The notes below the pieces were generated by a model. That model did no database searches, was not told the origin of the DNA, and saw nothing but the letters and a program-made list of their open reading frames with translations. From a virus (taxonomy: Duplodnaviria; Caudoviricetes): DNA of 64,000 bases. A program made the translations under genes and the position numbers. Positions 53,608-61,955 of this stretch are shown here, one piece after another (position 1 is the first letter of the stretch; every line of letters begins with the position of its first letter). Where the stretch lies: positions 1 to 64,000 of IMG/VR virus record IMGVR_UViG_3300027804_000001. One strand, given 5' to 3'.

Positions 53608-53979
53608 TTAGTAGAGAATTTGCTTATTTTTTTCAAATATTTTGTATCCAAAGTCAATTCTTGTTTTAACTTGAGGTATTGAGAATTTTACAATTTCTTC
53701 TATCTCAATTATTAATTCGTTGTTTTCTCCTTTTAATTTTGAATTATCGTCGAAATATATATAACGATTTTTATCAAAATCTTTTCTCATTTTTTCATAT
53801 AAAACTTCATAATTTATTAATTCACAAACCATTTTTTCCATATGTAATAAATGAGGTGAAAGTTTTTTTAAAAGAAACGAGTTGTCAACTTTTTGTAGGT
53901 AGGCAAGTAAAACATATTGTTTTTGTTCAAAGTCAATCGGTGATTCCATATACCATGTAAGTGCTAGTTGATTCAACAT
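53608..53979 (-). CDS. Hypothetical protein
   Basis: 123-aa ORF, TATTTATA at 53993-54000. Confidence 0.7.
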   Translation of the reverse strand: MLNQLALTWYMESPIDFEQKQYVLLAYLQKVDNSFLLKKLSPHLLHMEKMVCELINYEVLYEKMRKDFDKNRYIYFDDNSKLKGENNELIIEIEEIVKFSIPQVKTRIDFGYKIFEKNKQILY

Positions 53980-54012: not shown

Positions 54013-54044
54013 CTTGTATTTTCATATACTTATTGTTATCTTTG
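54013..54044 (+). promoter_or_regulatory. Promoter region of tRNA block 1: host-type CTTG-N20-TATCTTTG plus CATATACTTAT motif
   Basis: TATCTTTG at 54037-54044; CATATACTTAT at 54023-54033, identical to 55680-55690. Confidence 0.7.
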
Positions 54045-54069
54045 TTAGAGATTTAAATAAAAAAGTTCG

Positions 54070-54174
54070 ATGAAACAAGTAAAACATATTATGCACTCGT
54101 TTACAATCTGTTCAAAATGGGCGGATGAGCGTGTTATGCTTTTGTCTCGAACTGAAGATATTAATAAGGGCTAA
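54070..54174 (+). CDS. Leader peptide 1 (34 aa: MKQVKHIMHSFTICSKWADERVMLLSRTEDINKG)
   Basis: ATG 54070 to TAA 54174; sits between promoter and terminator upstream of tRNA block 1. Confidence 0.8.
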   Translation: MKQVKHIMHSFTICSKWADERVMLLSRTEDINKG

Positions 54175-54233
54175 ATAAAGATTGGCTTTAAATATTCAGA
54201 ACCTCGGGACAAAATCTCGGGGTTTTTTGTTTT
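54140..54233 (+). promoter_or_regulatory. Attenuator 1: antiterminator (54140-54162 with 54191-54214) competing with terminator (54200-54224 plus U tract)
   Basis: TTTTGTCTCGA pairs with TCGGGACAAAA and CTGAA..TATT with AATATTCAG; terminator AACCTCGGGA-CAAAA-TCTCGGGGTT-TTTTGTTTTT. Confidence 0.8.
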
Positions 54234-54234
54234 T

Positions 54235-54307
54235 GGGCCGGATGTCAATGGCAGACCACCTGATTTGCAATCAGAGTGAATGGGTTCGATTCCCAACGCG
54301 TCCACCA
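54235..54307 (+). tRNA. tRNA-Ala(TGC), acceptor stem with two mismatches
   Basis: Loop TTTGCAA, G3-U70, TTCGATT, encoded CCA. Confidence 0.75.
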
Positions 54308-54368: not shown

Positions 54369-54441
54369 TCTTAGGTAGCTCAATGGTGAGAGCATCCGTC
54401 TGATACGCGGAAGGTTGATGGTTCGAGTCCATCTCTAAGAA
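54369..54441 (+). tRNA. tRNA-Ile(GAT)
   Basis: TCCGT-CTGATAC-GCGGA; full cloverleaf. Confidence 0.95.
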
Positions 54442-54446
54442 CAATA

Positions 54447-54519
54447 GGAGATGAAGCTAACTTAGTAGAAGCGAAGGACTGAAAATCCTTAGGAGTTGGA
54501 GCGTAACCAACTATCTCCA
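54447..54519 (+). tRNA. tRNA-Phe(GAA) with non-canonical T-loop
   Basis: AAGGA-CTGAAAA-TCCTT; T arm GTTGG-AGCGTAA-CCAAC. Confidence 0.85.
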
Positions 54520-54524
54520 CAATT

Positions 54525-54598
54525 GACCTCTTAGCTCAGTTGGTTAGAGCACCTCACTTTTAATGAGGGAGTCCGCAGTTCGAGTCTGCGAGGGGTCA
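54525..54598 (+). tRNA. tRNA-Lys(TTT)
   Basis: CCTCA-CTTTTAA-TGAGG; full cloverleaf. Confidence 0.97.
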
Positions 54599-54604
54599 CA
54601 ATAC

Positions 54605-54675
54605 ATGGGTGTGGTGCAATGGTAGCATTCCGGTCTCCAAAACCGTCGATGGGAGTTCGAATCTCTCCACCCGTG
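54605..54675 (+). tRNA. tRNA-Trp(CCA)
   Basis: CCGGT-CTCCAAA-ACCGT; full cloverleaf. Confidence 0.95.
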
Positions 54676-54693
54676 CAAAAATTAAATAAATGT

Positions 54694-54764
54694 GGTCTCA
54701 TAGTTTAATGGAAAAACGTCTCGCTACGGACGAGATGATTGGGGTTCGAATCCCTGTGAGACCT
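54694..54764 (+). tRNA. tRNA-Arg(ACG)
   Basis: TCTCG-CTACGGA-CGAGA. Confidence 0.95.
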
Positions 54765-54796
54765 CTGTTCATTGTTCGAGAACAAAGAACAAATAA

Positions 54797-54867
54797 GTCA
54801 GGTTGGCCGAGTGGTTAGGCTGAGGTCTGCAAAACCTCCTACATTGGTTCGAATCCAATACTTGACT
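54797..54867 (+). tRNA. tRNA-Cys(GCA)
   Basis: GAGGT-CTGCAAA-ACCTC; U73. Confidence 0.96.
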
Positions 54868-54869
54868 CT

Positions 54870-54945
54870 GTGATAGATGTTCGTATGGTAGAACCCAAGA
54901 TTGTGGCTCTTGGATTAGCGGGTTCGAATCCCGTCTATCACCCCA
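54870..54945 (+). tRNA. tRNA-His(GTG), C73 but no encoded G-1
   Basis: CAAGA-TTGTGGC-TCTTG; encoded CCA; base -1 is T. Confidence 0.92.
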
Positions 54946-54946
54946 T

Positions 54947-55018
54947 TGTGGGGAGGTTAGGTAACCCGTTTGGTCTCATAAGCCAGATATTCAGGTTCGA
55001 TTCCTGGCCCCGCAACCA
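54947..55018 (+). tRNA. tRNA-Met(CAT), atypical (4-nt D-loop, U1-A72 paired, probably elongator)
   Basis: TTGGT-CTCATAA-GCCAG; D arm GGTT-AGGT-AACC; encoded CCA. Confidence 0.7.
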
Positions 55019-55036
55019 AAAAAAGATTAAAAATAT

Positions 55037-55067
55037 TTTGTGATTTCACAATTTATTCTTATCTTTG
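55037..55067 (+). promoter_or_regulatory. Internal Bacteroidota-type promoter upstream of tRNA-fMet
   Basis: TTTG (55037-55040) N19 TATCTTTG (55060-55067). Confidence 0.75.
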
Positions 55068-55077
55068 TAAAACAAAT

Positions 55078-55149
55078 CGCGAGATAGAGCAGCGGTAGCT
55101 CGGAAGGCTCATAACCTTTAGGTCGGGGGTTCGATTCCCTCTCTCGCAA
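55078..55149 (+). tRNA. Initiator tRNA-fMet(CAT)
   Basis: C1:A72 mismatch; GAAGG-CTCATAA-CCTTT. Confidence 0.9.
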
Positions 55150-55233
55150 CACTTGAGACTAACTCAACGAGGCTTTTGTCAACCAGAGCATGACTTGGAT
55201 GGTGCAGATTGAAGGTGGGTTAGAATCATTTTT

Positions 55234-55307
55234 GGTTTCTTGGTGTAGTGGCCTAACATGCCTCCCTGTCACGGAGGAGACCACGGGTTCGAATCCCGTA
55301 GGAACCG
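55234..55307 (+). tRNA. tRNA-Asp(GTC)
   Basis: CCTCC-CTGTCAC-GGAGG; G73. Confidence 0.97.
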
Positions 55308-55310
55308 CAA

Positions 55311-55472
55311 GTTGTTTCATACACTTAACACGCTTAGTAACAAAGCAAGGTACATAGAGTTACATAGAAGCATGGAGTGATTACCCGACGCTACATTCGG
55401 ACTACAAATGTGATTAGGTTCAGTCGTTGTAGAGAAAGAGATGTTAAGAGTAAACTTGCAAGTTGAAACAAC
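55311..55472 (+). ncRNA. Candidate 162-nt structured RNA between tRNA-Asp and tRNA-Ser
   Basis: Perfect terminal stem GTTGTTTCA/TGAAACAAC and inner CTTAACA/TGTTAAG; no ORF. Confidence 0.5.
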
Positions 55473-55476
55473 GATT

Positions 55477-55564
55477 GGAGAGATGGCAGAGTTGGCCGAT
55501 TGCGTCAGTCTTGAAAACTGAAGAACGGGAAACTGTTCCGTGGGTTCGAATCCTACTCTCTCCG
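55477..55564 (+). tRNA. tRNA-Ser(TGA)
   Basis: TCAGT-CTTGAAA-ACTGA; long variable arm; G73. Confidence 0.97.
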
Positions 55565-55569
55565 CACTT

Positions 55570-55641
55570 GCTCGGTTCGACTAGTGGTCAGGTCGCGTCC
55601 CTTTCACGGACGTAGCACGGGTTCGAATCCCGTACCGAGTA
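55570..55641 (+). tRNA. tRNA-Glu(TTC)
   Basis: CGTCC-CTTTCAC-GGACG. Confidence 0.97.
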
Positions 55642-55699
55642 CAAAAATTTTTTTATTATTTAAACTTTTTATATATTCACATATACTTATAAAACAGAG

Positions 55700-55804
55700 A
55701 TGAAGAATTTGAATAACATATCAACACTTAGTACGAGACCAGTTAATGGTAATGGGTATGGTGTGCAACCGTTATGTTACTCAAGTTCGGATTTCAAAAT
55801 GTAA
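55700..55804 (+). CDS. Leader peptide 2 (34 aa: MKNLNNISTLSTRPVNGNGYGVQPLCYSSSDFKM)
   Basis: ATG 55700 to TAA 55804; CATATACTTAT 9 nt upstream; terminator 23 nt downstream. Confidence 0.8.
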   Translation: MKNLNNISTLSTRPVNGNGYGVQPLCYSSSDFKM

Positions 55805-55866
55805 GATTCAATCTACCTAAGATATCGAAACCCGAACTCAACAAAAAAGTTCGGGTTTTTTGTTTT
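55784..55866 (+). promoter_or_regulatory. Attenuator 2: antiterminator (55784-55795 with 55827-55838) competing with terminator (55828-55858 plus U tract)
   Basis: AGTTCGGATTTC pairs 11/12 with GAAACCCGAACT; terminator AAACCCGAACT-N9-AGTTCGGGTTT-TTTGTTTT. Confidence 0.82.
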
Positions 55867-55895
55867 AGTAATTTTTTATTCTTATATTTTATTAG

Positions 55896-55907
55896 GTTCT
55901 TTGACAT
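55896..55907 (+). promoter_or_regulatory. boxA-like antitermination motif GTTCTTTGACAT; related copies at 59150 and 61548
   Basis: Resembles rrn boxA (TGCTCTTTAACA); copies precede tRNA block 2, the GOLLD-like RNA and tmRNA. Confidence 0.55.
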
Positions 55908-55920
55908 TGTGGGAAAATTT

Positions 55921-56044: not shown

Positions 56045-56290
56045 ATGGATATATTATCATTTATTTTAGGAATGTCCGTTGTGGTGGTTATCGCGGTTGC
56101 GGTAGTTGCTGTAATGGCCTTTGTTAAGGTGAGAAAACATAACAAAGAAATTGATGAAATTCATCAAATAATCGGAAGAGAAATTGATGTACAAAACAGA
56201 GAGCGTGAAACAATTGTTCAAGACATATATCGAACACTAGATTCACGACTTGATAAACTTGAAAGTAAATTAAACAGCCGTAAGGCATAA
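56045..56290 (+). CDS. Single-TM coiled-coil membrane protein embedded in the tRNA array
   Basis: Start moved to ATG 56045 (MDILSFILGM...); AAGGAG at 56031-56036. Confidence 0.8.
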   Translation: MDILSFILGMSVVVVIAVAVVAVMAFVKVRKHNKEIDEIHQIIGREIDVQNRERETIVQDIYRTLDSRLDKLESKLNSRKA

Positions 56291-58415: not shown

Positions 58416-58877
58416 ATGAAACAATTTAGAACTCTCTATGGGACAAATATTCCTAACTTGATTGAGTATGTTAGAGAATACATCTCAACAAGAGAGAACG
58501 TAGAAATTCTCATCGGATCTGACTCACAATGTTATGGAAATAAGAAAACCATTTATGGTGTTGTAATAGCATTATATACACCAGGGAAAGGTGCACATGT
58601 TTTATGTACTCGTGAGACAACTTCGATGGAATATAATACACCATCTAGATTGTTAAATGAGGTTTGGAAATCTATTGAAATTGCGGAATGGTTAAAAGAA
58701 AATGGATTACCTAAACCTACATGGATTGATATTGATTTAAATCCTGACCCAAAGTATAAATCTAATTCCGTATTAAGACAGGCAGTTGGTTTAGTCGAGG
58801 GTATGGGATATAAAGTTAGGTATAAACACTTAGGTGCGTTAACAACATATGCTGCTAATCATTTAGTACGTATTTAA
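58416..58877 (+). CDS. RNase H-like YkuK/DUF458 family protein
   Basis: ILIGSDSQ, GKGAHV, RLLNEVWKSIEIA, IDIDLN. Confidence 0.85.
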   Translation: MKQFRTLYGTNIPNLIEYVREYISTRENVEILIGSDSQCYGNKKTIYGVVIALYTPGKGAHVLCTRETTSMEYNTPSRLLNEVWKSIEIAEWLKENGLPKPTWIDIDLNPDPKYKSNSVLRQAVGLVEGMGYKVRYKHLGALTTYAANHLVRI

Positions 58878-59097: not shown

Positions 59098-59128
59098 TTT
59101 GTTTTTAAATAAACTCTTCGTATATTTG
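59098..59128 (+). promoter_or_regulatory. Bacteroidota-type promoter for the giant ncRNA
   Basis: TTTG (59098-59101) N19 TATATTTG (59121-59128). Confidence 0.75.
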
Positions 59129-59167: not shown

Positions 59168-59977
59168 TTGGCCGCCTATGGTCATTAAATAAACTGTGAA
59201 AGCAGTATAAAGTGAATCTGAATTAGTTATTCAGGTTTGCGGTTTCAGAAATGGAACTTGAGTAGGCAAGCGGGATATCATCGAACCTTAAGTACTGAGG
59301 GTGACACTTTAGGGAAAGTGGTTTGGTGACCAAGCGATACCGGTCGTTTGGTTGAGGTGGGAACACCAATAAGAATAACTCGTAGAATTATTGTAAAAAG
59401 TATGGTCTCCAACTATACAATTGCGTGATTCAATACAATGGGAATCTTAAAACCGAAAGGTATGGTGATGTACAGGTGGTGCTGTTATTATCCTTGATTT
59501 GAATCTACCAAGATTCTTATCTCGAAGGGGTCCAAAAGTATGGAGGTAGGGATATCTCAGAGGGTAGTTTAGTATCGTGTTGTTCAAAAGATGACATGTC
59601 TGGTGACGAGCCACTACCTTCCAAATCGGTAACTAAAATCATTTTGTTAATTTTGGTTTAACAAACTTAAATACAAAAGGAAAAGTGCTCGTCAGTCGTT
59701 AGAGACAGGTGACTACATAGTCGTGAGGGGTTCACGGCCACAAAGGGTCCCAAGCCCAATGTGAATTGTAAGAAAGTTCTCTAGTCCCGCAAGGATTAAT
59801 CGGGGTGGCAACCTCGAAGAGTAATGAGTAAGATGAGAGTATCTAATGACTTAAGGATTGGTTAATCTAATTGACCGTCACTGGTTGGTACAGTTCAAAA
59901 GACTGTGGATAAGAAAGGAAACAATAATCTTTCTAAAGTCAACTACTAAAACTTGTAATCTCAGAGTTTTGTTTTTT
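59168..59977 (+). ncRNA. GOLLD-like giant structured ncRNA (~800 nt; ends approximate)
   Basis: ORF-free, GC-richer tract with many short GNRA-type hairpins (CCGAAAGG, CCCGCAAGG), own promoter and boxA, next to a tRNA array; size and context match GOLLD. No covariance-model search run. Confidence 0.7.
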
Positions 59978-61561: not shown

Positions 61562-61955
61562 GGGGGTGTCTGGTATTGATTGGCGTTAATATGATAGGTG
61601 GGCACGTAGTCGGATGTCATCTACGACTTTAATCAACGGTGGTAAAATTCAAACGGCAACGTTTACAACAAAATGGAAGCTTGCGGATTAATTGCAACTT
61701 CTAACGTAGCAGTAGCCTAAGGCGAGACTACATTCGGGTCGGTTAGGACATTAACCTAGGAACAGAAGTCCAATATACGGGTCACAGGTCAGAGCTCGTT
61801 TAAAATAATTCTGAGACCAGGTTGTTTATAGGTTGGTTTCCCACATACATCAAACCTAATATTTCGGAACATTGAGAAACAATGTTGTAATAAACGTGTA
61901 GTCCATTTATGGTATTGCGAGCAAGACACGGGTTCGACTCCCGTCACCTCCACCA
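61562..61955 (+). ncRNA. ssrA: tmRNA; predicted tag (A)GNVYNKMEACGLIATSNVAVA at 61655-61720
   Basis: Acceptor GGGGGTG/CACCTCC-A-CCA with G3-U70; T arm ACGGG-TTCGACT-CCCGT; internal short reading frame ending in Ala. Confidence 0.93.

Follow-up and report, generated by a model that had tools for sequence, protein, structure and literature searches.

Most probably, a ribosome-mediated (leader-peptide) transcription attenuator which senses the decoding capacity for the very set of tRNAs encoded behind it lies in front of the first tRNA gene block of this phage, the host of which is likely a member of the Bacteroidota, and the phage probably makes the tRNAs of block 1 only under slow decoding of their codons. 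This attenuator reading is strongly supported at the level of sequence and folding models by an open reading frame (ORF), a terminator, a covarying antiterminator, the spacing between the parts, the codon match and the modelled ribosome stalls. Of the structural features that define the class of leader-peptide attenuators, a maintained ORF, matching codons, an intrinsic terminator and an antiterminator exclusive with it were found, a 1:2 hairpin is a prediction for the window, and control of read-through by leader translation and the supply of charged tRNA is the mode of action proposed here. In the window, as the whole analysed stretch of 64,000 nucleotides is called in the following, the unit and its neighbourhood consist of these features:

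54014 to 54044, plus strand: promoter of the Bacteroidota type (TTG, 18 nt, TAtcTTTG), from a pattern scan.
54070 to 54174, plus strand: leader ORF of 34 sense codons plus TAA, with ATG at 54070 and TAA at 54172-54174, from the sequence and the ORF list; 24 distinct variants keep the ORF.
54073 to 54132, plus strand: regulatory codons 2-21, from the codon-anticodon match.
54064 to 54153, plus strand: long leader hairpin, a candidate 1:2 anti-antiterminator in which the start-codon region pairs with segment 2, from folding.
54140 to 54162, plus strand: segment 2 (codons 24-31), 5′ strand of the antiterminator, from folding and covariation.
54167 to 54189, plus strand: small apical hairpin of the antiterminator, which encloses the stop codon 54172-54174, from folding.
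54191 to 54214, plus strand: segment 3, consisting of spacer, 5′ arm and loop of the terminator and complementary to segment 2, from folding and covariation.
54199 to 54234, plus strand: intrinsic terminator with an 11-bp hairpin, a 5-nt loop and then a U tract, from folding and relatives.
54235 to 54304, plus strand: tRNA-Ala(UGC)-like gene adjoining the U tract, from Rfam; at the same position in all relatives.
54369 to 55642, plus strand: tRNA block 1 with Ile, Phe, Lys, Trp, Arg(ACG), Cys, His, Met, Met, Asp, Ser(UGA) and Glu, from ARAGORN.
55038 to 55067, plus strand: internal promoter of the Bacteroidota type, from a pattern scan.
55700 to 55866, plus strand: attenuator 2, a second 34-codon leader (55700-55804) and a terminator, before tRNA-Leu through tRNA-Ser(GCU).

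Because the upstream gene (53608-53979, from the ORF list) is encoded on the minus strand, the promoter at 54014-54044 opens a new plus-strand unit, which begins at about 54000; the TATCTTTG box of this promoter is kept in 14 of the 16 relatives in alignment A1. The 5′ leader RNA is A-rich and without a Shine-Dalgarno sequence. Sequence inspection bore out the coordinates that a first-pass annotation of this DNA had given for the ORF, the terminator and the two complementary segments, as well as its distance of 25 nt from the stop codon (54172-54174) to the terminator stem, counted from 54200. The same annotation had placed the start of the first tRNA 1 nt after the U tract; the gene indeed follows the U tract, but with no gap, as 54235 comes directly after 54234, and it is a marginal tRNA-Ala. 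This tRNA-Ala(UGC), at 54235-54304, scores 29.7 bits in Rfam against a threshold of 29 and is missed by ARAGORN; the G3:U70 identity pair is present, together with the acceptor-stem mismatches 5-68 and 6-67 and an odd D arm. The aberrant form is kept in close relatives, the more distant L038, L041 and L043 have a canonical tRNA-Ala at this place, and the gene of the window may have decayed or may serve as a processing handle. As the terminator (54199-54234) adjoins the first tRNA, there is no space for another promoter between them.

A search of the GenBank phage collection gave no close relative, with matches confined to tRNA genes, and the divergent upstream protein as search anchor gave short weak matches only. 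With the 153-aa protein encoded at 58416-58877 as anchor, 80 loci were recovered from IMG/VR, mostly on freshwater contigs of up to 324 kb, and both leader regions are recognisable in IMG/VR relatives at 68-80% nucleotide identity. A pattern for the leader-1 core matched 46 viral contigs, which, pooled with the earlier loci, yield 24 distinct leader-1 variants, and a general search pattern (small ORF, then terminator, then tRNA) added distant relatives, for 45 leaders overall. These comparisons of sequence show that freshwater jumbo-phage contigs in IMG/VR conserve the element. All 24 leader-1 variants have an ORF of 29-34 codons, a terminator and the tRNA-Ala gene; an in-frame upstream ATG, which looks spurious, lengthens the ORF in two of them. 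The gap between terminator and tRNA-Ala is 0-2 nt in the leader-1 variants, apart from a 50-85-nt insert in a few, and inserts of this length with a hairpin (TTTTGGC...GCCAAAA) lie between the two at L017:4878-4965, L023:3155-3245 and L031:4688-4745.

The leader ORF appears to be maintained as a coding sequence, and we infer from its pattern of change that it is translated. ORFs of 28-53 codons are kept in all 45 leaders, in AT-rich DNA, and the net indels inside the leader-1 ORF in alignment A1 are multiples of three. The chance of a 34-codon open frame at this AT content is estimated at under 10%, and every lineage has one. Changes in the conserved core are often at third codon positions (TCG/TCA, TGT/TGC, TCA/TCG/TCT, GCG/GCA). 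At the level of the peptide, conservation is good in the N-terminal core but is lacking in the C-terminal third, which tracks the terminator sequence instead. Part of the leader core is also predicted to fold as a hairpin, and constraint at the RNA level may add to the conservation of the core. An untranslated RNA switch, riboswitch-like or T-box-like, which would sense a tRNA or a metabolite and to which the ORF would be incidental, could draw on this hairpin, with which some of the third-position changes also fit; however, frame-preserving indels and an ORF in every lineage despite AT-rich DNA argue against an incidental frame, and the sampling of 12 to 20 amino acids does not fit a T-box, which has a single specifier codon to read. 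Moreover, no T-box was matched in the leader region by Rfam at the gathering threshold or at E <= 5, nor did any Rfam leader family (His, Thr, Leu, Trp and others) match, the marginal tRNA being the only match, and we regard an untranslated switch as very improbable.

Codons 2-21 of leader 1 serve 12 of the 12 anticodons of block 1, with that of tRNA-Ala included in the count, under conservative wobble rules, a coverage reached by none of 100,000 random 20-codon windows drawn from the phage's own long ORFs (P < 1e-5), with a null mean of 5.3. In the swap control the same codons serve four of the 13 anticodons of block 2, and three further codons in this stretch (Gln, Val, Thr) are read by block 2. 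Leader 2 (55700-55804) gives the mirror pattern, serving 11 of the 13 block 2 anticodons versus two of the 12 of block 1, and attenuator 2 is in this way an internal control for codon matching. The match extends to the choice among Arg codons, as the CGU of leader 1 corresponds to tRNA-Arg(ACG) of block 1 and the AGA of leader 2 to tRNA-Arg(UCU) of block 2. In a leader-by-block Fisher test, p is 2e-4 for the window and reaches 1.7e-7 among relatives, and in two-leader genomes the fraction of regulatory codons read by the downstream block is 0.57-0.95, versus 0.30-0.59 for ordinary genes. Since each tRNA is represented by 1-3 codons and never by a run, the sensitivity to a single tRNA species may be low.

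Comparison among relatives indicates that the composition of the leader co-evolves with the tRNA gene array. The Asp and Glu tRNA genes of L038 are in the other block, the leader of which has D and E, and leader 1 of this relative is without them, KWADER having become KWTAIR. L041-L056 have tRNA-Val(UAC) and tRNA-Thr in block 1, a V in the leader-1 core (KWAEVAD) and a leader 2 without T. L023 and L024 are without tRNA-Lys, and K of the leader core is replaced by I; L062 and L064, with their Gly tRNAs upstream of the leader, have leaders without G. The tracking is imperfect, as L023 and L024 retain F, S and two N-terminal K codons despite missing tRNA genes. Where the 20-25 tRNAs of a relative form one continuous array, there is only one leader, 31-53 residues long, in which all 20 amino acids occur. 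For a single leader such a content has P = 0.002-0.02, and the weight of the finding lies in its recurrence in several lineages; among the small ORFs with all 20 residues in single-array loci, ten of 17 are such leaders.

These data also bear on the possibility of a functional micropeptide followed by an ordinary terminator, in which case the tRNAs would come from other promoters or from constitutive read-through, and the codon match would be an adaptation of a small gene to the tRNAs of the phage. The well-conserved N-terminal core and the internal promoter of block 1 are in accordance with such an arrangement, but the C-terminal third follows the terminator sequence rather than a conserved peptide, the set of amino acids changes along with the tRNAs in the block, the match of ordinary phage genes to one block has only the lower extent given above, and no promoter would fit between the U tract and tRNA-Ala. 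Since, in addition, unrelated leaders are alike in design only and not in sequence, a micropeptide of this kind is improbable, if not to the degree of the untranslated switch, and the leader-peptide attenuator remains the preferred reading.

Folding of the window sequence reproduces the terminator stem of the first-pass annotation, 54200-54209 with 54215-54224, i.e. 10 bp including two G-U pairs, and adds an 11th pair, G54199-U54225, so that the hairpin 54199-54225 amounts to -14.3 kcal/mol (z -4.2); its tail is TTTTTTGTTTTT, which ends at 54234. The proposed complementarity of 54140-54162 with 54191-54214 is likewise present, not as an uninterrupted pairing but as three helices: a base helix of 10 bp (54141-54150 with 54204-54213, plus a possible 54140:54214 pair), a middle helix of 4 bp (54152-54155 with 54196-54199) and an upper helix of 5 bp (54158-54162 with 54191-54195). 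They are capped by the hairpin 54167-54174 with 54182-54189, which holds the stop codon; a hairpin across the stop codon is predicted in close relatives too. The whole antiterminator (54141-54213) has -19.8 kcal/mol (z -3.6), and one of 200 shuffles folds equally well. An antiterminator helix not competitive in folding had been named as an outcome that would speak against attenuation; with the 5′ part of the leader omitted, the terminator-containing fold has -21.8 and the antiterminator fold -19.8 kcal/mol, and because the two differ by only 2 kcal/mol, the antiterminator is competitive. The long leader hairpin at 54064-54153 (1:2), of -27.3 kcal/mol and z -3.6 in the window, is a different case: across 21 leaders, segment 2 pairs with upstream sequence at 0.65 vs 0.55 for shuffled upstream sequence, which is not above control, and a conserved 1:2 anti-antiterminator is not supported by these predictions.

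The pairing between segment 2 and the 5′ arm of the terminator is borne out in relatives. In the 16 sequences of alignment A1, 100% of the terminator cells are paired, with 2 compensatory pairs, and 92% of those of the antiterminator helix, with 3 pairs in which both partners have changed; the observed antiterminator pairing is attained by 0 of 500 shuffles, and in slid controls at most 53% of cells are paired. Segment 2 and the terminator 5′ arm change together, such as GTCCCGAGG with CCTCGGGA or GTCTCGAGG with CCTCGAGA, and the terminator 5′ arm CCTGAGACT is matched by a segment 2 of either AGTCTCGG or AGTCTCAG. The 45 leaders have terminators of at least 10 unrelated sequences, the cores of which include CCTCTAAC, CCCCTAAC, GCCTAAC, GCCCGGC, GCTCCTGG and GCCCTGG, and each leader has a matching segment of 8-11 nt near the 3′ end of its own ORF. 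In a comparison with 35-45 non-cognate terminators the cognate pairing mostly ranks first to fourth, with a mean z of -2.8 over the 45 leaders, and the distance from the stop codon to the terminator 5′ arm is 15-32 nt in 45 of 45. If only the window were considered, an accidental ORF beside an ordinary terminator could be argued for, as the core duplex alone is marginal versus shuffles (z -1.9, p 0.06), but chance is effectively refuted by conservation and covariation, with the codon match also against it, and its probability is close to nil.

As for the working of the attenuator, we infer both the direction of the switch and its physiological signal. Transcription would start from the promoter at 54014-54044, and a ribosome would translate the 34-codon leader while RNA polymerase nears the terminator at 54199-54234. 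When codons 2-21 are decoded fast, the ribosome would be on codons 24-34 or at the stop codon as the terminator emerges; with segment 2 covered or the antiterminator melted, the terminator would form and a transcript of about 190 nt would end before tRNA-Ala. When codons 2-21 call for an aminoacyl-tRNA that is in short supply, the ribosome would lag, segment 2 would capture the 5′ arm of the terminator, and the polymerase would continue into the tRNA genes. The sampled tRNAs being the species encoded downstream, the net effect would be a negative feedback loop in which the phage tRNAs are produced when the decoding capacity for their codons is short.

Two ribosome-footprint models were applied to this scheme. 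In the first, with the transcript cut before the 3′ arm of the terminator emerges, the 5′ arm is pre-paired to the leader at about 0.7 in the window for stalls at codons 2-21 versus about 0.3-0.5 for codons 22-32, and many relatives have a sharper contrast of 0.8-0.9 versus 0-0.1. In the second, an equilibrium folding of the full-length leader with the complete terminator hairpin, the antiterminator prevails in the window only for stalls at codons 6-11 and 18-20 (terminator probability <=0.16), and the terminator probability is 0.91 with the ribosome at the stop codon; several relatives do not switch in this model at any ribosome position. The earlier proposal that a stall at codons 2-21 permits antitermination is thus upheld in so far as segment 2 is left free and the terminator 5′ arm is pre-paired at about 0.7, and is restricted to codons 6-11 and 18-20 where equilibrium is concerned. 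Because several relatives never switch at equilibrium, control would have to be kinetic; the terminator of the trp leader is also more stable than its antiterminator, and control there is likewise kinetic. The accompanying proposal, that a ribosome at the stop codon masks the nucleating helix, fails on distance, as the base helix ends 20-21 nt before the stop and a standard footprint reaches about 15 nt in the 5′ direction. At termination the ribosome would rather melt 54152-54199, the upper two thirds of the antiterminator with the stop-codon hairpin, and a ribosome on codons 24-33 would cover segment 2 directly.

The same models leave some room for a translated leader with an output that is not classical, such as protection of the tRNA precursor, itself untranslated, against Rho or nucleases, or a positive link between tRNA synthesis and ongoing translation, with the terminator as a leaky brake: equilibrium folding mostly favours the terminator at whatever ribosome position, the 1:2 element is unsupported, and a ribosome at the stop leaves the base helix unmasked. 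Such an output would, however, leave unexplained the covariation of segment 2 with the terminator 5′ arm in many sequence families as well as leader codons that follow the tRNAs of their own block and not the general codon usage of the phage, and a stop codon 15-32 nt upstream cannot block the formation of the terminator hairpin. We consider it unlikely, although the least so among the alternatives to attenuation.

Part of block 1 may escape the attenuator. The internal promoter at 55038-55067 is 11 nt before an initiator-like tRNA-Met (55078-55150) with a C1xA72 mismatch, and the association of this promoter with this tRNA-Met is kept in L013, L015, L016 and L041, with the promoter absent where the tRNA was undetected. 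The Met, Asp, Ser and Glu tRNAs may therefore also be produced independently of attenuator 1 from this promoter, and the initiator tRNA-Met may be constitutive, outside attenuator control. Contigs from a riverine metatranscriptome (two runs) hold the 3′ half of leader 2, the terminator and the spacer to tRNA-Leu (55728-55917, 55744-55891), and others cover parts of block 1; such contigs give no starts, ends or strand. Those at 55728-55917 are compatible with read-through transcripts, with DNA carry-over also possible.

The ilvGMEDA, thr, trpL, hisL, leuL and pheL leaders are enterobacterial leader-peptide attenuators of amino-acid operons. The phage element resembles them, with ilvGMEDA (Ile/Val/Leu) and thr (Thr/Ile) as examples of several sensed amino acids, in its short, putatively translated leader, in regulatory codons upstream of a segment that pairs with the terminator 5′ arm, and in a stop codon shortly before the terminator. 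Unlike those leaders, it is owned by a phage and its targets are tRNA genes and not biosynthetic enzymes; it samples 12 tRNA species (20 amino acids in the single-array relatives), with few codons for each, and is matched at the level of the anticodon (CGU in leader 1, AGA in leader 2), whereas its 1:2 pause or anti-antiterminator hairpin is only predicted. The E. coli pheST operon for phenylalanyl-tRNA synthetase is also controlled by a leader-peptide attenuator. As in pheST, a component of the translation apparatus would be controlled by the supply of charged tRNA, but pheST controls a synthetase with a single amino-acid specificity and the phage element tRNAs. With T-box riboswitches the phage element shares the choice between terminator and antiterminator according to tRNA status and the relation of the controlled genes to translation; a T-box, however, binds one uncharged tRNA directly without translation, and the phage element keeps a conserved ORF. 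The pheL attenuator has been reviewed (PMC3082878). In a study with his-leader reporters, the reading speed of single codons can change attenuation (PMC4046918), a property needed by a codon-sampling leader and the reason why we consider such a leader plausible, although that assay is an engineered Salmonella system and does not concern the control of tRNA genes. In the full-text literature no description of leader-peptide control of tRNA genes was found, with most subscription journals outside the coverage of the search.

The attenuators are part of a larger RNA-gene island, which in the window comprises 25 tRNA genes (ARAGORN), the one marginal tRNA and two further RNAs:

59560 to 59967: GOLLD RNA, 322 bits in Rfam.
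61562 to 61955: tmRNA with the tag ATSNVAVA.

A third promoter-like site of the form TTG-N-TAnnTTTG is at 59099-59128, about 430 nt upstream of GOLLD. An 81-aa ORF (56046-56290), preceded by AAGGAG, lies between tRNA-Leu(UAA) and tRNA-Arg(UCU); its product has a coiled-coil-like tail and is predicted to have one membrane helix. In relatives, the inserts at this site and elsewhere between tRNA genes are variable. Four relatives (L032:15029, L041:12048, L051:12063, L056:11605) encode a tRNA with a CUA anticodon, labelled Pyl by ARAGORN and not found in the window, a possible amber suppressor.

The usual view of phage tRNA genes is that they help constitutively with codon usage or counteract tRNA-cleaving defences. 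Tentatively, and with less confidence than we have in the attenuator itself, the arrangement can be seen as a switch for tRNA supply on demand, by which a jumbo phage would detect the depletion of host tRNAs and transcribe the block that is needed, as an inducible counter-defence and translation homeostat. If so, the source of depletion could be host anticodon nucleases or the decay of the host pool after shut-off, and blocks with their own codon-matched leaders would give block-specific responses. The attenuator reading itself predicts that depletion of tRNA-Lys or tRNA-Arg(ACG) opens attenuator 1 and depletion of tRNA-Tyr or tRNA-Asn attenuator 2. With a leader that samples the codons of every downstream tRNA, attenuation would have been found for tRNA genes for the first time, and such a leader would constitute a natural sensor of decoding capacity as well as a clear case of a regulatory peptide that co-evolves with a gene array.
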